Shown piece after piece: positions 1-12,136 of a DNA stretch of 12,136 nt. The notes beneath the pieces are model-generated. The model made no database searches. It saw nothing but the letters and a program-made list of their open reading frames with translations, and was not told the DNA's origin. The DNA lies in the UHGV virus genome UHGV-1828797; one strand, 5' to 3'. The first letter of the stretch is position 1. Every line of letters starts with the position of its first letter. A program made the translations under genes and the position numbers. The stretch comes from a virus.

Positions 1-438
1 CAGGAAAATATCAAAGAATTTCAATATATCAAAGAATTAAAAGAGAAGGGCTATCAGCTCAAAGCCATAAAAATGATCGTACATAATGGTGATATGGAGC
101 AGAGACTTCCGGAACTTACCGGAAATGAGGCAGATAAGCCTGGTGGCGTAAAAAATCATCAGGTTTATTTTAAAAACCCGGAGACCTTAGCTTTGGCAGA
201 GGCAAAGCAGAGCATATTGGACAATACGGACCGCATGGCGCAATTCACAGAACTCATGACAGATATTGTGGGCAAGGCGATCGCAGCAAACAATGAAAAT
301 TTAAGCAGGACGATCAGCGAAGATGTGGGGGAACAGGTACTCAAGGAGATGAATTATCTGATGCGGGAGCGTGAGGAACTGGAAGAGGAACGTTTCAACC
401 AGACGGTAAGTGAGGTAAGGCAGCTGGCAGGGGAATAA
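1..438 (+). CDS. Hypothetical protein, 5'-partial (3' end of a gene that runs off the window start); MerR-like HTH/wing motif in the first visible residues
   Basis: Frame 1 is open from base 1 with no stop until TAA at 436-438, so the ORF-track start at 73 is only the first in-window Met. Upstream translation QENIKEFQYIKELKEKGYQLKAIKMI resembles the end of a MerR-family HTH (pattern like 'FIKrakelGFsLeEIkell'). The first ~200 nt are clearly more AT-rich than the rest of the window. The C-terminal part is acidic and looks helical. Confidence 0.5.
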   Translation, partial: QENIKEFQYIKELKEKGYQLKAIKMIVHNGDMEQRLPELTGNEADKPGGVKNHQVYFKNPETLALAEAKQSILDNTDRMAQFTELMTDIVGKAIAANNENLSRTISEDVGEQVLKEMNYLMREREELEEERFNQTVSEVRQLAGE

Positions 439-444
439 AAGCTT

Positions 445-470
445 GGGTCGCTATCGCGGCCCTTTTTATT
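445..470 (+). terminator. Putative rho-independent terminator after the upstream gene
   Basis: GGGTCGC (445-451), loop TATC, GCGGCCC (456-462; 7 bp stem with one G-U pair), followed by TTTTTATT, 7 nt after the stop codon. Confidence 0.6.
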
Positions 471-508
471 ACCTCAACTGGACACCCGCAACGTAGCGAG
501 GTGAGAGC

Positions 509-724
509 ATGTATCGAATGGAAAAAATCACGACGGGTATTGCATACGGCGCATCGGGTGGGGGGACCGGATACTGGTTGCTTCAGCTCCTCGATAAAGT
601 CTCCCCATCACAATGGGCGGCCATTGGTGTGCTCGGTAGCCTCATGTTTGGTTTGCTGACGTGGTTAACGAGTCTGTACTTCCAAATCAAAGCGGATCGC
701 CGCAAAGCTGCGCGGGGTGAATGA
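509..724 (+). CDS. S: Class II holin (phage 21 S-type pinholin) with dual-start motif
   Basis: 71 aa with two hydrophobic segments ([21 protein letters not shown] and [23 protein letters not shown]) and a basic C-terminus ([11 protein letters not shown]), as in S21. Met1 and Met4 (M-Y-R-M) would give 71- and 68-aa products. GAGGTGA Shine-Dalgarno 6 nt upstream. The stop overlaps the endolysin start (ATGA). Confidence 0.85.
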
Positions 725-1260
725 TGTCGAACAAAGCAAAGCTCAGTGCAGCAGTGCTGGCGCTAATCGCGTCAGGGGCATCTGCTCCACTCATTTTCGA
801 CCAATTCATCAGCGAGAAAGAAGGCAATGCGCTGGTGGCCGTTGTTGATCCGGGTGGGGTCTGGTCTTTATGTCACGGCGTGACCGTTATCGATGGCAGG
901 CGTGTTGTTAAAGGCATGACGGCCACTGAGGAACAATGCCGGAAGGTTAACGCTATTGAACGCGATAAGGCATTAGCCTGGGTTGATCGCAATATCAAAG
1001 TGCCTCTGACAGAACCGCAGAAGGCCGGGATCGCATCTTTCTGCCCGTACAACATCGGGCCGGGTAAGTGCTTCCCTTCCACGTTCTACAAGCGCATCAA
1101 TGCCGGTGACCGCCACGGGGCATGCGAGGCGATTCGCTGGTGGATTAAGGACGGTGGACGTGATTGCCGCCTGACAAAAGGCCAGAAGAATGGCTGTTAT
1201 GGGCAGGTCGAGCGGCGCGATCAGGAAAGTGCGCTGGCGTGCTGGGGGATAGACCAATGA
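721..1260 (+). CDS. R: SAR endolysin (phage 21 R-type lysozyme with N-terminal signal-anchor-release domain)
   Basis: 179 aa. The N-terminus is a Gly/Ala-rich weakly hydrophobic segment ([20 protein letters not shown]) typical of SAR domains, followed by an E...D...T lysozyme catalytic region ([15 protein letters not shown]...HGVT). It sits immediately after the pinholin with an ATGA overlap. Confidence 0.88.
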
Positions 1261-1358
1261 GCCCAAGCAGCATTTGTTTCATTGTGGCGGGAATACTGAC
1301 GTGTCTCTGTATGTCTGGTTGGGGATGGTTTGTCTTTGTTGGAGTAATCCTCCTATGA
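1257..1358 (+). CDS. Candidate 33-aa single-pass hydrophobic peptide nested between endolysin and Rz (hypothetical)
   Basis: ATG at 1257 overlaps the endolysin stop (ATGA, 1257-1260); the stop TGA at 1356-1358 overlaps the Rz start (ATGA, 1355-1358). GGGGGA at 1244-1249 gives a 7-nt Shine-Dalgarno spacing. Product [33 protein letters not shown] is almost entirely hydrophobic. It fills an otherwise unexplained 94-nt spacer inside the lysis cassette. Confidence 0.35.
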
Positions 1359-1819
1359 GTCGAATTGTTGGAGTTACCTGTGCGGTAACTATCGTGGTAA
1401 TCAGCGCTATGGGTTGGGCCATCAACCACTATCGCGACAACGCCATCACCTACAAAGACCAGCGCGATAAAGCCACAAAGAACCTCCGCCTGGCTAATGC
1501 CACCATCAAAGATATGCAGACCCGCCAGCGTGATGTCGCTGCACTGGATGCCAAATACACGAAGGAATTGTCCGATGCGAAAAAGACCATTAACGATTTG
1601 CGTCGTGATGTCGATTCTGGCGCTAAACGGCTGCGCATCGCCGCAACCTGCCCTGGAGTGCCAAAAGCCACCTCCTCCACCGGCGTGGATGATGCAGGAG
1701 CCCCCGAACTTACTCCAGACGCTCGACGGAATTATTTCGATCACCGGGACGGAATCGCAACCGCTGACAAAATGATTCGCGGCATGCAGGACTACATCAA
1801 AGAGCAGTGTCTTAAGTGA
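1355..1819 (+). CDS. Rz: Rz i-spanin (inner-membrane spanin subunit)
   Basis: N-terminal TM helix ([17 protein letters not shown]) followed by the conserved [27 protein letters not shown] motif and a C-terminal QDYIKEQC, closely matching lambda Rz from memory. Start taken at ATG 1355 (protein MSRIVG...), not the upstream in-frame ATG at 1274. Confidence 0.9.
1575..1775 (+). CDS. Rz1: Rz1 o-spanin (outer-membrane lipoprotein), embedded in the +1 frame of Rz
   Basis: Lies entirely inside Rz in another frame. [20 protein letters not shown] has a signal peptide with a lipobox-like LNGC, followed by the proline-rich PPPPPAW motif characteristic of lambda Rz1. Confidence 0.8.
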
Positions 1820-1837
1820 TTCGTCACCCAAATAACA

Positions 1838-1866
1838 GAGCCTGACTTCGGTCGGGCTTTTTTATT
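1838..1866 (+). terminator. Putative rho-independent terminator after the lysis cassette
   Basis: AGCCTGAC (1839-1846), loop TTCG, GTCGGGCT (1851-1858; 8 bp stem with one G-U pair), then TTTTTTATT, about 20 nt after the Rz stop. Confidence 0.7.
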
Positions 1867-1890
1867 CCCAGAAGAAGCAGGAGAAGAAGC

Positions 1891-2758: not shown

Positions 2759-2852
2759 TGGTAATCAAAGTTTGTTCAGGCTCTCAGGGCTTCGACAACC
2801 CATCCAAATTCCGCGATGAATGGGATAAGCAAGCAGAAGGGAAATAATCAAT

Positions 2853-3341
2853 ATGGCAGCACCAAAGGGCAACCGATTTTGGGAGGCCCGCAGTAGTCAT
2901 GGGCGAAATCCTAAATTCGAATCGCCTGAGGCGCTGTGGGCTGCTTGTTGTGAATACTTCGAGTGGGCTGATGATAACCCACTATGGGAGGGTAAGGTAT
3001 TTTCATATCAGGGAGAAATAATTAAGGCTAATGTCCCTAAGATGCGAGCCATGACTATTTCAGGATTGTGTACCTTCCTTGATATCACCAGGCAAACGTG
3101 GGGAACCTTCCGGTCAATGGAAGGTTTTTCTGACGTCACATCACGAGCGGAAGACATCATCTACGACCAGAAATTCTCTGGCGCAGCCGCTGACCTTCTC
3201 AACGCTAACATCATCGCCCGTGATTTGGGCCTCAAAGAGCAGTCGCAAGTTGAAGACGTGACACCTGATAAGGGAGATCGCGATAAGCGGCGCTCTCGTA
3301 TCAAGGAGCTATTCAACCGTGGAACTGGACGCGATTCTTGA
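2853..3341 (+). CDS. terS: Terminase small subunit (P22 gp3-like)
   Basis: 162 aa starting [22 protein letters not shown], recognised as the P22-type small terminase family. It sits immediately upstream of, and overlaps, the large terminase gene. It contains a pac-like sequence (next feature). Confidence 0.85.
3120..3141 (+). other. Candidate pac (packaging initiation) site inside terS
   Basis: GAAGGTTTTTCTGACGTCACAT matches about 16 of 22 positions of the P22 pac site (GAAGATTTATCTGAAGTCGTTA, from memory) and lies at the equivalent position in the gene, about nt 268 of terS. Confidence 0.4.
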
Positions 3342-4815
3342 TAACCTGAGCGACGAAGAGCAAATCGAATTGCTCGAGCTACTCGAAGAAGAAGAGAACT
3401 ACCGGAACACACACCTGCTATATGAATTTACGCCATACAGCAAACAGCGTGAGTTCATCGACGCCGGGCATGACTATCCAGAGCGCTGTTTTATGGCTGG
3501 TAACCAGCTTGGTAAGTCATTTACTGGTGCTGCTGAAGTCGCGTTTCACCTTACCGGGCGTTATCCGGGCACAAAAGGCTATCCTGCTGATGGTAAATAT
3601 GGCGGGGAGTGGAAAGGTAAGCGTTTCTATGAGCCTGTTGTCTTCTGGATTGGCGGCGAGACAAACGAGACGGTAACCAAAACGACTCAACGCATCCTGT
3701 GCGGTCGTATTGAAGAGAATGATGAACCGGGCTACGGTTCAATACCGAAAGATGACATCATTAGCTGGAAGAAGTCTCCTTTCTTTCCGAACCTTGTTGA
3801 TCACCTTCTGGTTAAGCATCACACGGCTGATGGCGTTGAAGATGGCATTTCAATCTGCTACTTCAAACCATACTCGCAAGGCCGTGCTCGCTGGCAGGGT
3901 GACACAATCCACGGCGTGTGGTTTGACGAAGAGCCACCATACAGCATTTATGGCGAAGGTCTTACCCGTACCAACAAATACGGGCAATTCTCAATTCTGA
4001 CGTTTACCCCGCTGATGGGGATGTCTGACGTTGTTACCAAGTTCCTGAAGAATCCCAGCAAGTCGCAGAAAGTGGTCAACATGACCATCTATGACGCTGA
4101 GCACTATACCGACGAGCAGAAAGAGCAAATCATCGCATCCTATCCTGAGCATGAGAGAGAGGCGCGTGCTCGCGGTATTCCTACGATGGGTAGCGGTCGA
4201 ATCTTCCAGATACCGGAAGAGACGATTAAGTGTCAGCCGTTCGAGTGTCCTGATCACTTCTACGTCATCAATGCAATGGACTTCGGATGGGATCACCCAC
4301 AGGCACACATCCAGCTTTGGTGGGATAAAGACGAGGACGTGATTTATCTTTCTCGCGTCTGGAAGGCCAAACAGAAGAAGGCGACAGAGGCATGGAGTGC
4401 TGTTAAAGCATGGAGCAAAAACACCCCTACGGCTTGGCCTCATGACGGGCATCAGCACGAAAAGGGAGGCGGCGCTCAGCTCAAGGAACAATACGCCGAC
4501 GCTGGGTTCGATATGTTGCCAGATCATGCAACATGGCCTGATGGAGGTAATGCGGTCGAACCCGGGATAGCAGAGATACGCGACATGATGCTCGACGGTC
4601 GTTTCAAGGTATTTAACACCTGCGAGCCATTCTTTGAAGAGTTTCGCCTGTATCACCGCGATGAGAACGGGAAGATCGTCAAGCTAAATGACGACATCCT
4701 TTCTGCTGTTCGCTATGGCTACATGATGAGGCGTTTTGCAATACAGATGCGAGACATCAAAGATCCTAAAGAGATTGATTACTCAAGCTACAACATACCT
4801 TGCGGAGTTGGATGA
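3319..4815 (+). CDS. terL: Terminase large subunit (ATPase/nuclease)
   Basis: 498 aa with a GTG start overlapping the terS 3' end. Walker A-like motif AGNQLGKSF near the N-terminus; size and position match P22 gp2-type TerL. The stop TGA (4813-4815) overlaps the portal start. Confidence 0.9.
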
Positions 4816-7016
4816 TGGCTGATGATAGAAAGATGACTGACTGGCATCGCAAGGTGCTGTGCAACTTTGATAATGCCTGGTCAGCAACGCAGGATATGCG
4901 TGAGCAGATTATTGAGGCTCAACGTTTCGTTCGGGTATCCGGCGCACAGTGGGAAGGCAGCACAAACGCTGGTTACTCATTTGATGAAGGCAGGTTTGAG
5001 CATTACCCGCGCTTTGAACTGAATAAGATTGCCCGTGAATGTGATCGCATCATTGGCGAGTATCGACAGAATCGCATCAGCGTTAAATTCAGGCCGAAGG
5101 ACGATAAGGCATCGGAAGCGTTAGCCGAAAAGATGAATGGTAAATTCCGCGCTGACTATCAGGAAACATCCGGTGGCGAAGCGTGTGATAACGCATTTGA
5201 TGATGCTGTAACGGGCGGATTCGGTTGTTTCCGCATGTGTGCCGATTACGAAGATGAAATGGATCCGAGTAACGAGCAGCGACGCATCAGCCTTCTTCCT
5301 GTTTACGACCCAGCGACATGCGTCTTCTTCGATCAGGACAGCAAGCAATATGACCGCTCTGATGCTATGTGGGCTATGGAAATGTTCTCCATGACGCCTA
5401 AAGCGTTCGAGGCTGAATACCCTGATTCCATCGCGGCAAGCCTTTCTAGTGATGACACTGGCACTCAATATGACTGGTCAACGCCAGATGCCATCTATGT
5501 TGGTCGCTACTACGAAGTTCGCATAGAGAAGGTGAAGCTCACGGCATGGCGTAACCCTGTTAGCGGAGAAACGGCAATCTATGATGAAGAGCAAATCAAA
5601 GATATTGTCGACGAGCTGACCGATGGCGCATTCGAACTGATTGGCGAGCGGACAGTGAAGAAACGCCGCGTTTATTGCGGCCTTCTGTCTGGCGCTGAAT
5701 GGCTGGAAGAACCGAAGCGTATTCCGGGCGAACATATTCCTCTCATCCCGGTATATGGGCGTCGTTCATTTGTTGATAATCAGGAGCGAATAGAAGGCCA
5801 CGCAGCAAAAGCGATGGATGCACAGCGTCTTGAGAACCTGATGGTTTCCATGATTGCAGATAACGCTACTCAGGCTGGCGGTGATGGCATTCCTATCGTG
5901 GATGTTGATTTCATTCCAGGTACATTAATGAATCACTGGGCAGAGAGGAATAAGAAAAGACCTGCAGTTCTTCCTATGACCAGCAAGAAGGACAAAAACG
6001 GAACAGTCATTTCAGAAGCTCAGGTTGCTGGCTGGACACCACCGACACAAATGCCTCCTGCTCTTGCCGGGCTATTGCAGTACACCGGAACTGCTATTCA
6101 GCAAATTACAGGCGCGTCGCAGCTTGAGAACATGCCGAGCAACGTCGCTACTGATACCGTTGATAGCATCTTTAACCGGATGGATACGCAGTCCTATATC
6201 TACATGGACAACATGGCTAAATCCATGCGTCGCGCTGGCGTTGTGTGGCTTTCTATGGCGCGTGAAGTCTATGGCAGCGATACGCCGATGCGTATCGTTA
6301 ATGAGGACGGCAGCGATGACGTGGCGCTGATGACTGGTGAAGTGGTTGACCGTCAGACAGGGCAGGTTATCGCGCTTAACGACCTTTCGCAGGGTAACTA
6401 TGAAGTGACTGTCGATGTCGGTCAGTCGTTCGCTACTCGCCGTGATGCAACGGTTAAGTCGTTACTTTCCATGCTGGCACTTATCCCGCCAGGAACGCCG
6501 AAGCATGACCTTGTATCGTCGATGATTCTCGACAATATGGACGGCGAAGGGATGGACGACCTTAAAGAATACAACCGCAATCAGTTGCTTCTGTCTGGCG
6601 TTATTAAGCCGAGAACACCAGAAGAACAGCAGATGGTTGAGCAGGCGAAACAACAACAGGCCAGTCAGCCAGATCCGGCTATGGTTGCAGCGCAAGGTCA
6701 GCTTCTTGCTGGTCAGGCTGAATTGCAGAAAGCGCAGAACGAACAGGCAGCCATTCAGGTTAAAGCATTCCAGGCACAGACTGATGCTCAGGTTGCTGCG
6801 GCAAATGTTGTGAAAATCCTCGCATCTGCCGATAGCCAGCAGAAATCTGATATCCGCGAGGCTCTGAAACTGCTCGGACAGTTCCAGCAACAGCAAGGAG
6901 ATAATGCCCGTGCTGATGCAGAGCTTGTCCTGAAAAGTCAGGCACAGGGCCATGCGCAGCGCATGGACATCAGCAGCATCCTGCAAAAATCAACTCAGCA
7001 ACAACCACAGCAGTAA
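4812..7016 (+). CDS. Portal protein (P22 gp1-like)
   Basis: Conserved portal motifs recalled from P22 gp1 (RRRVYCGLLSG, EHIPLIPVYG) and a long C-terminal Gln/Ala-rich helical extension (PEEQQMVEQAKQQQASQPDPAMVAAQGQLLAGQAELQKAQ...) like the P22 portal barrel. Start taken at ATG 4812 (ATGA overlap with terL); ATG 4815 is equally possible. The ORF track starts at TTG 4800. Confidence 0.9.
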   Translation: MMADDRKMTDWHRKVLCNFDNAWSATQDMREQIIEAQRFVRVSGAQWEGSTNAGYSFDEGRFEHYPRFELNKIARECDRIIGEYRQNRISVKFRPKDDKASEALAEKMNGKFRADYQETSGGEACDNAFDDAVTGGFGCFRMCADYEDEMDPSNEQRRISLLPVYDPATCVFFDQDSKQYDRSDAMWAMEMFSMTPKAFEAEYPDSIAASLSSDDTGTQYDWSTPDAIYVGRYYEVRIEKVKLTAWRNPVSGETAIYDEEQIKDIVDELTDGAFELIGERTVKKRRVYCGLLSGAEWLEEPKRIPGEHIPLIPVYGRRSFVDNQERIEGHAAKAMDAQRLENLMVSMIADNATQAGGDGIPIVDVDFIPGTLMNHWAERNKKRPAVLPMTSKKDKNGTVISEAQVAGWTPPTQMPPALAGLLQYTGTAIQQITGASQLENMPSNVATDTVDSIFNRMDTQSYIYMDNMAKSMRRAGVVWLSMAREVYGSDTPMRIVNEDGSDDVALMTGEVVDRQTGQVIALNDLSQGNYEVTVDVGQSFATRRDATVKSLLSMLALIPPGTPKHDLVSSMILDNMDGEGMDDLKEYNRNQLLLSGVIKPRTPEEQQMVEQAKQQQASQPDPAMVAAQGQLLAGQAELQKAQNEQAAIQVKAFQAQTDAQVAAANVVKILASADSQQKSDIREALKLLGQFQQQQGDNARADAELVLKSQAQGHAQRMDISSILQKSTQQQPQQ

Positions 7017-7106
7017 TTAACCCATAACGTGCAATGGCTGTCTTTATGAGGCCTGGCACCCTATTGCCTTCCGATGGGCTGAACATCGAGTAAACAGGGG
7101 TAACAA

Positions 7107-8000
7107 ATGGACCAGATGGCAGAAAACACACCAGAAGTTGAAATCGAAACCGACGCGTCAGAGCAGATTCCTGATGATGTCGAACTGGCTGAAGAAGTCG
7201 AAACAGAAGATGGCAGTGAGTCCTCCGGCAATGATGCAGAGGAAGCTACTGAAACTGATGACGACGAATCAGAACAGGAATTCTACTTTGGTGACGAAAA
7301 GCTGGATTCGCCAACCAGCGAAGATGGCGCAGAGCATGGACTGGTAAAACACCTGCGCAAGACGATTAAAGAGAAAGACCGCGAGCTGAAAGAGCTGATG
7401 CGTCAGTCTCAGAAACCCGTCGAGCAGCAGCCGGTAATCACTCAACCACCGCGAATGCCAAAACTGGATGATGAGGACATCGGTTTCGATGAAGAAATCT
7501 ATCAGCAACGCATGGCTAAGTGGGCAGAGGATAACGGCAAGTACCAGCAACAGGAGATGGCTCGCAAGCAGAAGGAGCAGGAGCTTCAGGCTGCCTATCA
7601 AGAGCGATTATCCAAATATCAGCAACGTGTTAAGGCTCTCAAGGTTCCTGGCTATCAGGAAGCAGAACAGGCCGTACTCGAGGAAATCCCCATCGAGACA
7701 CAAAACGCGATCCTGTTTGAGTCAGAGAAGCCGGAAATCGTTGTTCTGGCACTCGGTCGCAACGCTGAACTGCGCAAGCAACTGGCAGAAGCTACCAACC
7801 CCGTAGCAATTGGTCGTCTGCTGGAACGTATCGAATCGAAGGCCAGAATCATGCCAAAAGCAAAAACCACGGCAGCCACAACCCCGACAGTTAAGGGGAG
7901 CAACGGCGCAGTAATCAATAACCTCGACAAACTGAAAGCCAAGGCGCTGGAAACTGGTGACTGGACGCCGTATTTCGCCGCTAAAAAGGCAAAAAAATAA
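7107..8000 (+). CDS. Scaffolding protein (putative)
   Basis: Sits between portal and coat, as P22 gene 8 does. 297 aa with an extremely acidic N-terminal ~70 residues, a central charged helical/coiled-coil-like region, and a basic C-terminus (..DKLKAKALETGDWTPYFAAKKAKK) of the kind that binds coat protein. Call is by position and composition, not strong sequence recognition. Confidence 0.65.
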   Translation: MDQMAENTPEVEIETDASEQIPDDVELAEEVETEDGSESSGNDAEEATETDDDESEQEFYFGDEKLDSPTSEDGAEHGLVKHLRKTIKEKDRELKELMRQSQKPVEQQPVITQPPRMPKLDDEDIGFDEEIYQQRMAKWAEDNGKYQQQEMARKQKEQELQAAYQERLSKYQQRVKALKVPGYQEAEQAVLEEIPIETQNAILFESEKPEIVVLALGRNAELRKQLAEATNPVAIGRLLERIESKARIMPKAKTTAATTPTVKGSNGAVINNLDKLKAKALETGDWTPYFAAKKAKK

Positions 8001-8018
8001 CCTATCGGAGCATTAAGC

Positions 8019-9272
8019 ATGGTTAACCAATTAGCAAAAGACCTTGAAATCATGTTCGAAAACTACGTTGAAGGCTTTGAGGCCGCCTGCGTAGTTTCCC
8101 GTAACGCTAAAAAATTCCGTCCCGGTGATACAGCAATGCAGCGAGCAGGTGATGTTCTGTATCGTCCGCAGCATTACCACATGAACATTGAGGAAGGCCT
8201 AGATCTCAGCGGCAAAACGCCAACAGCACTGGTTCAGCGCCTTGTTCCTTCTGTGTTCAAGGAGCCGAAAAACATTCTGTACACTCTGGATGCGCGTGAA
8301 ATGCGTGACCCGGAACATAAAACTGAAGCTGGTCGCGCCGCAGGTATGCGCCTTGCTGCACAGATTGACTCTGACCTGATTTCCATGGTCACGCAGCGTG
8401 CTACTAACGTGATCACAATGGCTGACTCAACCACTGGTTCACAGGGCCGTGATTTGTGGAACTGTGCGGCAGGTATTGATGCCACCATGACGGCGATTGG
8501 TGTACCACAGGGTATCAACCGCCGCTCTTTCTGGAATCCCTTCAACTATAAAGACCTTGCTGGCGAGCTTGGTCACCGTGCTTATGCTCAGGGCGCAACC
8601 CTGACAGCATACGAAAAAGCGCAGATCCCTCCGGTTGCGTCCTTCGATAGCTACAAGACCGATATTTCTGGTCGTGTTCCGAAGGGTACAGCAACTCCCA
8701 TTACGCTGGCAGCAGCACCTGCGCACAAGGTTGAAGCGAAAGATGCTAACGATATGCCAGTGGATAACCGACAGGGGACCATTACGGTATCTGCTGAAGG
8801 TTTGCAGGTTGGCGATGCGTTTACCATCGCAGGGGTGAATTCTGTACACCAGATCACCAAAGATACCACCGGGCAGCCGCAGGTATTCCGCGTTCTGGCA
8901 GTAAGCGGAACGACAGTAACTATCTCCCCGAAAATTCTGCCGCCTGACAACGCGGATGTCGCCAGCCGACCATATGCAAACGTTGATGCTAATGCGGCAA
9001 GTAGCGCAGCAATCACCATTCTCAACAAAAATGCCGCACCGGCTAACCTGTTCTGGGCTGATGGTTCTGTTGAACTGATGTACGGCAAGCTGGCGTTCCC
9101 AACTGGTCAGGGTCCACAGGTAATGACAGCAACCACCGAGCAGGGCGCTACGCTGATCATGTCTTACGCCTTCGACCACATCAAAGGTGTAACCACTGCG
9201 CGTTTCACCACCCTGTACGGTTGCTCTGTACTTGTTCCTGAATATACGGGCATCGTTATTGCCGGGCAGTAA
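8019..9272 (+). CDS. Major capsid (coat) protein
   Basis: 417 aa immediately after the scaffold gene, with GGAG Shine-Dalgarno. Short stretches resemble P22 coat from memory (AKKFRPGDTAMQRAG near the N-terminus, NLFWADGSVELM near the C-terminus). Followed by a strong terminator. Confidence 0.8.
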   Translation: MVNQLAKDLEIMFENYVEGFEAACVVSRNAKKFRPGDTAMQRAGDVLYRPQHYHMNIEEGLDLSGKTPTALVQRLVPSVFKEPKNILYTLDAREMRDPEHKTEAGRAAGMRLAAQIDSDLISMVTQRATNVITMADSTTGSQGRDLWNCAAGIDATMTAIGVPQGINRRSFWNPFNYKDLAGELGHRAYAQGATLTAYEKAQIPPVASFDSYKTDISGRVPKGTATPITLAAAPAHKVEAKDANDMPVDNRQGTITVSAEGLQVGDAFTIAGVNSVHQITKDTTGQPQVFRVLAVSGTTVTISPKILPPDNADVASRPYANVDANAASSAAITILNKNAAPANLFWADGSVELMYGKLAFPTGQGPQVMTATTEQGATLIMSYAFDHIKGVTTARFTTLYGCSVLVPEYTGIVIAGQ

Positions 9273-9278
9273 TTTTGG

Positions 9279-9302
9279 TGGGGCTTCGGCCCCATTTTTA
9301 TT
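9279..9302 (+). terminator. Putative rho-independent terminator or attenuator after the coat gene
   Basis: Perfect 6-bp stem TGGGGC / GCCCCA with a TTCG tetraloop (9279-9294), followed by TTTTTATT, 7 nt after the coat stop. Confidence 0.7.
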
Positions 9303-9313
9303 GGGAGAAGACA

Positions 9314-9490
9314 ATGGCACGAACAATGCTCTATAAGCCTGGCAACATGATCACCTGTGGTCAGTTTGCTGTCGATTACATCATTGTTGATGACGAAGAA
9401 GTTAAATCTCACCTGAAAAAAGGCTGGGTAAAAACTCCTGAAGAAACCGCAACGAAGCATAAAGTGGCTAAGGCGGAAGAAGATGGCTAA
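9314..9490 (+). CDS. Hypothetical small protein (58 aa) between coat and gp4-like gene
   Basis: ATG 9314 is preceded by GGGAGAAG Shine-Dalgarno. The stop TAA 9488-9490 overlaps the start of the next gene (ATGGCTAA). The ORF-track version begins at TTG 9275 inside the terminator hairpin, which is unlikely to be the real start. Confidence 0.5.
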   Translation: MARTMLYKPGNMITCGQFAVDYIIVDDEEVKSHLKKGWVKTPEETATKHKVAKAEEDG

Positions 9491-9944
9491 AACGAAGGGT
9501 GATCTCGTTCTTAAGGCTTTACGAAAAGCCGGGCTGTATTCCAATGCCACGTTGACAGATGCTGACCCTCAGGCAATTGAAGATGCCATTAATGACCTCG
9601 AAGACATGATGGCAGCATGGCAGGCGAAAGGTATCGAGCTTGGGTATCAGTTTGCTGATACAGAAAACGGCATCATGCCGTTACCTGACGATGATTCAGG
9701 TATCCCTGCATGGGCAAATGATGGCGTCGCTTTGAAACTCGCTGTGCAAGTGTGCATGGATAACGTCATTCAGCCGTCAGACGCTCTCCTTACCGCTGCT
9801 GACAGTGCATATCAGACAATCTGTATCGCTTTAACCAAAATACCACCACTTGAGCGGCGAAATGACATGCCTCGCGGTAGTGGTAACAAAAGCGCGTTTA
9901 CGTGGAATCGGTTTTACATCGAGAAAGATGATCCGAGTACGTGA
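9483..9944 (+). CDS. Head-to-tail adaptor / head completion protein (P22 gp4-like)
   Basis: 153 aa. The N-terminus KTKGDLVLKALRKAGLYSNATLTDADPQAIEDAINDLEDMMAAWQ closely parallels P22 gp4 as recalled (KTKGDLVRAALRKLGV..ATLTD..PQ...DA.DDLEAMMAEW). Gene order matches P22. Confidence 0.85.
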   Translation: MAKTKGDLVLKALRKAGLYSNATLTDADPQAIEDAINDLEDMMAAWQAKGIELGYQFADTENGIMPLPDDDSGIPAWANDGVALKLAVQVCMDNVIQPSDALLTAADSAYQTICIALTKIPPLERRNDMPRGSGNKSAFTWNRFYIEKDDPST

Positions 9945-9953
9945 GGTGAATAA

Positions 9954-11372
9954 ATGCCGATTCAGCAACTTCCGCTTATGAAAGGTGTCGGCAAAGACTT
10001 TCGAAACGCCGACTATATCGACTATCTGCCAGTGAATATGCTGGCTACACCCAAAGAAATCCTCAACAGCAGCGGATATCTTCGCTCATTCCCGGGCATT
10101 GCCAAACGTTCTGATGTGAATGGTGTATCGCGCGGTGTCGAGTACAACATGGCGCAGAGTGCTGTTTATCGCGTGTGTGGCGGCAAGCTGTACAAAGGAG
10201 AAAGTGAAGTCGGTGATGTTGCCGGAAGTGGTCGTGTATCAATGGCGCATGGTCGAACATCACAGGCGGTAGGCGTTAATGGTCAACTGGTCGAGTATCG
10301 CTATGATGGCACGGTTAAAACCGTCTCAAACTGGCCTACAGACAGCGGATTCACGCAGTATGAGTTAGGTTCTGTTCGCGACATTACGCGCTTACGTGGG
10401 CGTTATGCGTGGTCAAAAGACGGAACTGATTCATGGTTTATCACTGACCTTGAAGACGAATCGCACCCTGACCGATACAGCGCACAATATCGCGCAGAGT
10501 CGCAGCCTGACGGCATCATCGGCATAGGTACATGGCGAGACTTCATCGTCTGCTTTGGTTCATCGACGATTGAATATTTCTCCCTGACTGGCGCAACCAC
10601 CGTTGGTGCTGCTTTGTATGTCGCACAGCCATCACTGATGGTGCAAAAAGGCATCGCCGGGACTTACTGCAAAACGCCGTTTGCTGATTCGTATGCGTTC
10701 ATCAGCAATCCGGCAACAGGTGCGCCGTCTGTGTATATCATCGGCTCCGGTCAGGTGTCACCAATCGCCAGCGCGAGCATTGAGAAAATCCTCCGCTCCT
10801 ACACTGCTGATGAACTGGCTGATGGTGTGATGGAATCGCTGCGGTTTGATGCTCATGAGTTGCTGATTATCCACCTTCCGCGCCATGTTCTCGTGTACGA
10901 CGCATCTTCAAGCGCCAATGGTCCGCAATGGTGTGTACTGAAAACAGGCCTGTATGACGATGTGTACCGCGCTATCGACTTCATTTACGAAGGCAATCAG
11001 ATAACGTGCGGCGATAAGCTGGAGTCCGTGACCGGGAAATTGCAATTCGATATCAGCAGCCAGTACGACAAGCAACAGGAACACCTGCTGTTTACTCCGT
11101 TGTTCAAAGCGGATAACGCCAGATGCTTTGATCTGGAGGTGGAATCATCCACTGGCGTAGCTCAGTACGCCGACCGCCTGTTCCTCTCTGCAACCACTGA
11201 CGGCATAAATTACGGGCGTGAGCAGATGATTGAGCAGAATGAACCGTTCGTTTACGACAAGCGTGTTTTGTGGAAGAGAGTAGGGCGCATCAGGAAAAAT
11301 GTCGGCTTCAAATTGCGCGTTATCACGAAGTCACCTGTCACTCTGTCTGGCTGCCAGATAAGGATTGAGTAA
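9954..11372 (+). CDS. Tail accessory / packaged-DNA stabilisation protein (P22 gp10-like)
   Basis: 472 aa starting [49 protein letters not shown], near-identical in my recollection to P22 gp10 and of the same length. The stop overlaps the next start (TAATG). Confidence 0.88.
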
Positions 11373-12073
11373 TGGCTGATTCGAATCTCAATACACCTGT
11401 TATTGTTCAGGCGACGCGGCTCGATACATCAATCCTTCCACGCAATATATTCAGCCAGTCTTACCTGCTTTACGTTATCGCACAGGGTACTGATGTTGGT
11501 AACGTGGCGAACAAGGCCAACGAGGCCGGACAGGGCGCTTATGACGCACAAGTCAGGAACGATGAGCAGGATGTGATTCTGGTCGATCACGAAGAAAGAA
11601 TTCGTCAGCTCCGCATTGAAGTAGATGACCATGAAATCCGTATTGCTGCGAATACTGCGGCAATTGCAGCGCTGGATGTCAGACTAACCACGGCTGAAGG
11701 AGAAATAGTCACTTTACAGGCTGACGTCAGCGCTCTTGATGGCCGGGTTACGACTGCTGAGAGCAACATTTCTGCATTACAGGACGACTATGTATCGAAA
11801 ACAGCCACTGCAACACAATCGCTGGCATCTCCCCTCAATGTAACAACATCCTATTCGGTCGGCGGCACCAAGGTTATTGGTGCTCGTCAGACAGGGTGGA
11901 CAGCGGCTACAGGTACGGCTCTTCGCGGCTCATTCAACGCTAACCAGACATACACGGTAAGTGCCACATACACACGGTCTGAGGTGTCGGCTATGGCTAC
12001 AGGATTGCAGCAGGCGCGGCAGCGTATCAAAGCTATGGAAGATGCATTACGGACGCATGGGTTGATTGACTGA
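11372..12073 (+). CDS. Tail needle / cell-envelope-penetrating protein (P22 gp26-like)
   Basis: 233 aa. The N-terminus [43 protein letters not shown] and the central heptad-repeat coiled-coil region (..[62 protein letters not shown]..) match P22 gp26, a trimeric coiled-coil fibre. Confidence 0.9.
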
Positions 12074-12136
12074 TGATTACATTCAAACCAACGCGAAACA
12101 TCGACCTGATCGAAGCAGTCGGAAATCACCCTGACA
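12073..12136 (+). CDS. Ejection (internal) protein gp14-like, 3'-partial (N-terminal 21 codons only)
   Basis: ATG 12073 overlaps the gp26-like stop (TGATG). Translation [21 protein letters not shown] runs to the window end. Identity is inferred mainly from P22 gene order (26 then 14). Confidence 0.55.
   Translation, partial: MITFKPTRNIDLIEAVGNHPD

Follow-up and report, generated by a model that had tools for sequence, protein, structure and literature searches.

The first 470 bases of the 12,136-nt stretch of viral DNA analyzed here (UHGV virus genome UHGV-1828797; hereafter, the window) are very probably an inter-species misassembly in which a piece of a Roseburia gene is joined to ordinary phage sequence, and the foreign cargo gene that they seem to contain is, on this reading, not a real feature. 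There is no new phage regulator here and no biological significance. The locus serves instead as an example of a trap, in that an in-frame inter-species misassembly mimics a foreign cargo gene exactly where lambdoid phages carry cargo. Left uncorrected, the contig would suggest gene transfer from a Firmicute to a coliphage together with a false host link, and the contig should be cut back to base 376 before it serves for host assignment, inference of gene transfer or clustering of proteins. Beyond the join, the terminator and the lysis genes are genuine and ordinary lambdoid phage sequence. The features of the left end of the window are as follows:

1..375, + strand: chromosomal fragment of Roseburia inulinivorans covering codons 45-169 of the 206 in a MerR-family gene (helix-turn-helix [HTH] wing and coiled-coil region); together with 376-396, identical to strain DSM 16841 at 396/396 positions.
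376..396, + strand: the join, GAACTGGAAGAGGAACGTTTC, 21 nt common to both parents; the Roseburia match ends at 396 and the phage match starts at 376.
397..438, + strand: 3′ end of a phage N6/N4 DNA (adenine) methyltransferase gene, identical to the ends of LLS_51 and WP_097748886.1.
445..467, + strand: intrinsic-terminator-like hairpin (445-462) and T-run (463-467, TTTTT) between the methyltransferase and holin genes, supported by its fold, by comparison with shuffled sequences and by its occurrence at the same site in relatives.
498..503, + strand: Shine-Dalgarno sequence GAGGTG of the holin gene, read from the sequence, 5 nt before the ATG at 509.
509..724, + strand: phage 21 S-type class II holin (pinholin) of 71 aa with starts at Met1 and Met4 (PF04971).

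Frame 1 has no stop codon from base 1 until the TAA at 436-438 (145 codons), and alignment of this open reading frame (ORF) to its sources indicates that it consists of two unrelated pieces joined at 376-396. Over window positions 1-396, identity to R. inulinivorans DSM 16841 (NZ_ACFY01000170.1; positions 3133-3528 of the locus that we designate L010) is complete and the first mismatch falls at 397; past 396, the Roseburia sequence continues …CGTTTCCGTCAG…. Positions 376-520 are identical at 145/145 positions to a prophage of E. coli O68:H12 strain 97.3 (locus L090), where this stretch comprises the last 20 codons of a methyltransferase gene, the terminator and the start of the pinholin gene. 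When compared base by base, the match to Escherichia phage LLS (locus L001) also begins at 376, with mismatches at 375 and before, and the methyltransferase sequence upstream of 376 in the phage parent reads …GGCGTAGAACTGG…. The two sources overlap by exactly 21 identical nt, located near the 3′ end of the gene in each parent genome. This 21-mer encodes ELEEERF in the same frame in both parent genes, and because the frame is common to both, the fused ORF stays open. Copies of the 21-mer were found in the Roseburia isolate, in the loci L002-L009, in phage LLS and in the E. coli prophage. Window positions 376-438 are the last 20 codons and the stop of the phage methyltransferase gene. The window ORF ends …REELEEERFNQTVSEVRQLAGE and the phage methyltransferase …VELEEERFNQTVSEVRQLAGE, each followed by the stop, and the ending of LLS_51 (…ELEEERFNQTVSEVRQLAGE and stop) is identical to that of the window ORF, as is the ending of WP_097748886.1 from E. 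coli 97.3.

Base composition changes at the join, where GC content steps from 42.9% (positions 1-375; 41% over 1-300) to 50.8%, and the Roseburia loci, at 43-44%, match the left arm. The 375-nt segments of the remaining 11.7 kb of the contig have a mean GC of 50.8% (sd 2.2) and a minimum of 45.6%, and all of them lie above the value for 1-375. A preliminary description of this DNA, made from the sequence alone, had remarked that the left end is more AT-rich than the downstream phage genes, and these figures bear it out. The comparison of composition and codon usage that it proposed gave a divided answer: total GC alone separates the two arms clearly, whereas third-position GC is a weak discriminator (0.50 in the left arm versus 0.49-0.61).

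The left arm can be traced to a specific MerR-family gene. Residues 2-27 of the ORF translation match profile positions 41-66 of the 69 in Pfam MerR_1 (PF13411; E = 0.0014, 19.1 bits), in agreement with the earlier reading of the first residues as the wing of a MerR-type HTH. The score is just under the 21.6-bit cut-off of the family because the HTH itself is missing. The 44 N-terminal residues that bear it fall outside the contig, the recognition helix is absent from the window, and the fragment as it stands does not amount to a winged HTH. A protein search with the 145-aa translation returned 1,209 matches, the best of which was a 206-aa MerR-family protein (here P0001) with a MerR_1 domain at residues 6-71 in its full-length form (E = 1.3e-22, 80.1 bits), and the view that a frame open to the window edge (1-438) is the tail of a larger gene was therefore correct as regards the left arm. 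P0001 agrees with the first 83% of the query at every position, with window residues 1-132 corresponding to P0001 residues 45-176, and then diverges (…EELEEERFRQLDEAIRGNLKKKK…); the C-terminal 13 residues of the ORF derive from another protein. What ties the window to the MerR family is that its left-arm residues come from P0001, which has the full domain; what sets it apart is that it holds the wing end of the domain alone, plus 13 foreign residues.

The gene for P0001 is found on many long human-gut metagenome contigs from many samples, in a fixed chromosomal setting with the order MatE, GdpP-like, rplI, dnaB, MerR, ferredoxin, aldose epimerase and Sua5, then ATP synthase genes. The left arm is 99.0-99.2% identical to gut metagenome contigs in which the gene follows rplI-dnaB. 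Among species-representative genomes, the closest copy is that of R. inulinivorans DSM 16841, and the best 80 of the 226 relatives in these genomes belong nearly all to Roseburia, Agathobacter or other Lachnospiraceae, with a few under other bin labels and none from an enterobacterium.

Several observations concern the Roseburia gene itself. It is conserved across Lachnospiraceae directly 3′ of rplI-dnaB (L002-L010; positions 6001-6621 in L002), and in its product an N-terminal MerR HTH is accompanied by an extended C-terminal portion, helical and charged, and by a tail rich in lysine. P0001 matched no metal- or drug-binding equivalog; over its whole length, it came closest to the chromosome-anchoring protein RacA, though weakly so (E = 5e-6, well short of the cut-off). 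A second protein, P0002 (228 aa, from a single 1,421-nt ENA contig), contains a second, diverged HTH-wing segment as an insertion following residue ~28 (…WEDELDLQIHRNAKGHRFYVNSDLALLQNIKELKEMGHRYYTQENIKEF…) and looks like another strain- or species-level assembly chimera inside the same gene. Some metagenome-assembled genome bins labelled Senegalimassilia, Bacteroidaceae, Acutalibacteraceae or Oscillospiraceae (L070, L071, L067 and L074) carry the gene, which is otherwise confined to Lachnospiraceae, at 50-56% identity, and at least the Senegalimassilia and Bacteroidaceae labels look like binning contamination.

The right arm belongs to a site at which lambdoid phages carry cargo. The slot between Q and the lysis genes carries stx in Stx phages, and cargo genes of this kind fall under the concept of the moron. 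A complete 350-aa methyltransferase gene precedes the same holin-proximal sequence both in LLS and in three prophages of E. coli; the full-length parent methyltransferase matches PF01555 with E = 3.8e-45. In LLS and E. coli 97.3, this gene lies 3′ of the Q antiterminator gene and directly 5′ of the hairpin and the holin gene, and in both genomes Q is followed in turn by one or two small genes, methyltransferase, hairpin, pinholin, SAR-type endolysin and spanins. The cargo of the Q-to-holin slot in the relatives consists of the methyltransferase and hypothetical genes. The slot that holds stx in Stx phages is thus occupied by a methyltransferase in these genomes. The likeness to the known cargo slot lies in the presence of the LLS/E. 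coli prophage methyltransferase gene, along with the exact hairpin, between Q and the pinholin gene; the difference is that the cargo is a methyltransferase and not a MerR protein, contrary to the proposal that this slot holds a MerR gene. Promoter-like sequences for the methyltransferase cargo were counted in the E. coli prophage and in LLS and were no more frequent than in shuffled sequence.

That proposal envisages a MerR-type regulator truly borne by the phage, an AT-rich moron gained by horizontal transfer and provided with a terminator of its own 5′ of the holin, and the MerR wing motif, the AT-rich composition and the terminator downstream are all features that such a gene would show. 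We give it next to no credence. The final 20 codons and the terminator are those of the methyltransferase gene in related phages, and the native MerR protein has an ending of its own that differs (…EERFRQLDEAIRGNLKKKK…). No MerR homologue was present at the Q-to-lysis site in related phages or E. coli prophages, and the presence in relatives by which a moron is recognized was thus not seen. A tblastn search of phages with P0001 found no enterobacterial phage relatives; its matches (33-64% identical) were confined to seven uncultured, unannotated human-faecal ‘Bacteriophage sp.’ records, among which the near-full-length matches were at most 40% identical. These seven could be Firmicute phages or bacterial contamination.

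The junction is restricted to a single assembly. In an exact look-up, the fused 145-aa product was recorded on a single contig from a single sample, ena:ERZ650794:NODE_2437_length_12136_cov_5.033027. The window is the whole of this contig from its first base, as confirmed by sequence identity, and the mean k-mer coverage given in the contig name is ~5. The Roseburia arm is therefore a stub of 396 nt that sits at the extreme end of a contig with low coverage. Exact searches with junction patterns of 65, 48 and 32 nt found none among IMG/VR viral contigs and JGI metagenomes. When 50,697 phage records were searched by megablast with positions 1-1300, matches began at 369 or 376 and none lay further left (best match, Escherichia phage LLS at 95.5%); in a search of 5,426 complete E. 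coli genomes, positions 1-520 again matched only from 369 or 376 onward, in three prophages. No match was obtained for bases 1-396 in the 50,697 phage records at blastn sensitivity, nor for bases 1-368 in the 5,426 E. coli genomes by megablast. In one respect, the earlier description of a horizontally acquired insert was apt, as the left end is foreign to the phage in composition and origin; that the phage carries it is not supported, however, the piece being Roseburia chromosome at 396/396 positions, attached through a 21-nt join, on a single contig.

The join has the properties of an assembly chimera. Each arm is ~100% identical to a different organism (396/396 and 145/145), the join lies within a short exact repeat (21 nt) that is present in isolate genomes of both parents, and the junction was not reproduced in IMG/VR, JGI metagenomes, phage records or E. 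coli genomes. A name of the form NODE_x_length_y_cov_z is that of a SPAdes contig, and the default k series starts at 21 in SPAdes/metaSPAdes as in MEGAHIT; the assembler, its settings and k = 21 were inferred here from the contig name and the SPAdes defaults. In a de Bruijn graph at k = 21, the common 21-mer would be a single vertex at which both genomes merge. The genuine phage path, which enters this vertex through the methyltransferase gene, was probably absent or pruned at ~5x coverage, in which case the Roseburia in-edge and the phage out-edge would be compacted into one unbranched path and reported as one contig, the k = 21 path presumably being carried over into the larger-k rounds. 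Since the frame is the same on both sides, the result would be an open but fictitious MerR-methyltransferase fusion ORF, from which nothing is expressed in nature. By chance alone, a 4-Mb and a 5-Mb genome should have approximately nine exact 21-mers in common, so that bridges of this kind are to be expected and are unremarkable across a whole metagenome; for the Roseburia genome against one 40-kb phage, the expectation is ~0.07.

Intergenomic misassembly is a described class of error (PMC5411777; bioRxiv 10.1101/2021.06.22.449514), and inter-species translocations were the most frequent type of misassembly in CAMI benchmark data (bioRxiv 10.1101/2021.06.22.449514). The present contig resembles inter-species de Bruijn misassemblies in having arms from two organisms, a short exact repeat between them, low coverage, a short foreign arm at the contig end and no second occurrence. 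Its sole notable difference is that the 21-mer lies in the same frame in both genes, so that the chimera resembles an intact ORF. Some points weigh against misassembly. The final SPAdes graph uses a larger k, so that either carry-over from k = 21 or a chimeric read would be needed. An in-frame fusion is what would be expected of a selected gene fusion, yet it might also arise with a chance of one in three, or better where the repeat consists of purine-rich codons. Finally, a recombinant that is real but rare would be missing elsewhere just as a misassembly is.

The artefact could also have arisen at the bench. A chimeric library molecule, formed at the same microhomology by PCR template switching or by ligation at the common 21 nt and then faithfully assembled, would give the same sequence outcome as the one observed. 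Template switching favors stretches of identity, and at ~5x coverage one chimeric read could bridge the gap. We nevertheless regard this origin as very improbable, as the overlap is exactly 21 nt, the smallest default k, which points to the graph over chemistry.

A real recombination event would require that an E. coli lambdoid phage or prophage took up R. inulinivorans chromosomal DNA at a 21-bp microhomology in one person’s gut, the body of the methyltransferase being replaced to leave a MerR-methyltransferase-tail fusion in the Q-to-lysis cargo slot. If true, the junction would represent capture of host DNA across phyla into the cargo slot of a late operon, caught before any divergence. The Q-to-holin slot is a known cargo site, the fusion is in frame and both organisms inhabit the gut, all of which this explanation accommodates. 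The identity of 396/396 to the Roseburia type strain, however, would mean zero divergence since the supposed transfer. DNA would have to pass from a strictly anaerobic Firmicute to a coliphage, the length of the overlap equals the smallest k of the assembler, and the Roseburia arm is just 396 nt long and runs into the contig end. The join rests on a single contig at ~5x and is absent from the 50,697 phage records, the 5,426 E. coli genomes, IMG/VR and the JGI metagenomes. We therefore hold such an event to be very unlikely, slightly more so than a library chimera, and retain misassembly as the explanation of the left end.

The hairpin downstream of the ORF appears, from its conserved position in the relatives, to be a genuine phage terminator of the methyltransferase gene and not of the MerR gene, to which it had been assigned as that gene’s own. 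It begins 7 nt after the stop codon and comprises seven pairs (six G-C and one G-U) and a 4-nt loop at 445-462, with a predicted fold of -13.4 kcal/mol (z = -2.97); 0 of 200 shuffled sequences folded as well. Positions 445-467 display the G+C-rich hairpin, the U-run and the location 3′ of a gene that are characteristic of an intrinsic terminator. The same hairpin is found in the same place in the E. coli 97.3 prophage (L090, 3070-3087) and in LLS (L001, 4075-4092), and as the copies are identical, covariation is uninformative. It ends ~30 nt before the Shine-Dalgarno sequence at 498-503, and a terminator just before the holin Shine-Dalgarno had indeed been noted.

The hairpin had also been likened to tR′. 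This holds insofar as it is probably a real phage terminator in the late operon 3′ of Q, a gene that falls outside the window; by analogy with lambda biology, polymerase from the late promoter would have to pass it in order to reach the lysis genes, and read-through by Q-modified polymerase is predicted. As the primary tR′ of LLS, the 445-467 hairpin was rejected, as LLS has a hairpin and T-run right after Q, at ~95 nt (L001, 2189-2208), which is the better-placed tR′ candidate. In the E. coli 97.3 prophage, a simple scan found no plus-strand terminator between Q and the methyltransferase hairpin, and with no Q-proximal alternative found by that scan, a tR′ role for the 445-467 hairpin is possible there.

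From 376 onward, the window is an ordinary mosaic E. coli lambdoid phage with P22-like structural genes. The holin matches PF04971 over residues 5-67 with E = 3e-31 and 107.6 bits (cut-off 26), which places it in the family. It is followed by a lysozyme gene (PF00959) that has an Ala/Gly-rich N-terminus and overlaps the holin gene by 4 nt. The cassette is similar to that of phage 21 (S21 pinholin, SAR endolysin R21 and Rz/Rz1) in its dual-start PF04971 holin, followed by a lysozyme and an Rz with an embedded Rz1; there is no difference of note, and it constitutes a mosaic of common enterobacterial phage modules. Positions 376-1260 resemble LLS (95%), and the spanin region resembles Klebsiella phage Chronis and phi80 (84-91%). 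The spanin module is unrelated to that of LLS, which places a mosaic boundary at ~1260. Positions 2783-12136 hold P22-type packaging and head genes (gp3, terminase, portal, scaffold, coat, gp4 and gp10) that are 95-97% identical to many E. coli prophages.

Some smaller features of the lysis region can be added. At 509-520 (+), the two in-frame holin starts, Met1 and Met4 (MYRM…), are separated by a basic residue, which is the antiholin/holin arrangement of phage 21 S, and the LLS annotation lists both anti-pinholin and pinholin starts. An Rz-type i-spanin (PF03245) is encoded at 1355-1819 (+), and an Rz1-type o-spanin is embedded in it in the +1 frame at ~1575-1775 (+), with a lipobox (…ILALNGC) and a PPPPPAW motif as in lambda Rz1. 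Between the endolysin and Rz genes, a strongly hydrophobic ORF of 33 codons at 1257-1358 (+) has ATGA start/stop overlaps at both ends; it is absent from the source’s gene calls, LLS has a different spanin module at this position, and the ORF may encode a small membrane protein accessory to lysis or may have arisen by chance. A further terminator-like hairpin, longer than that at 445-462 (10 pairs, followed by TTTTATT), lies at 1837-1867 (+), where the lysis cassette ends just 3′ of the spanin genes.
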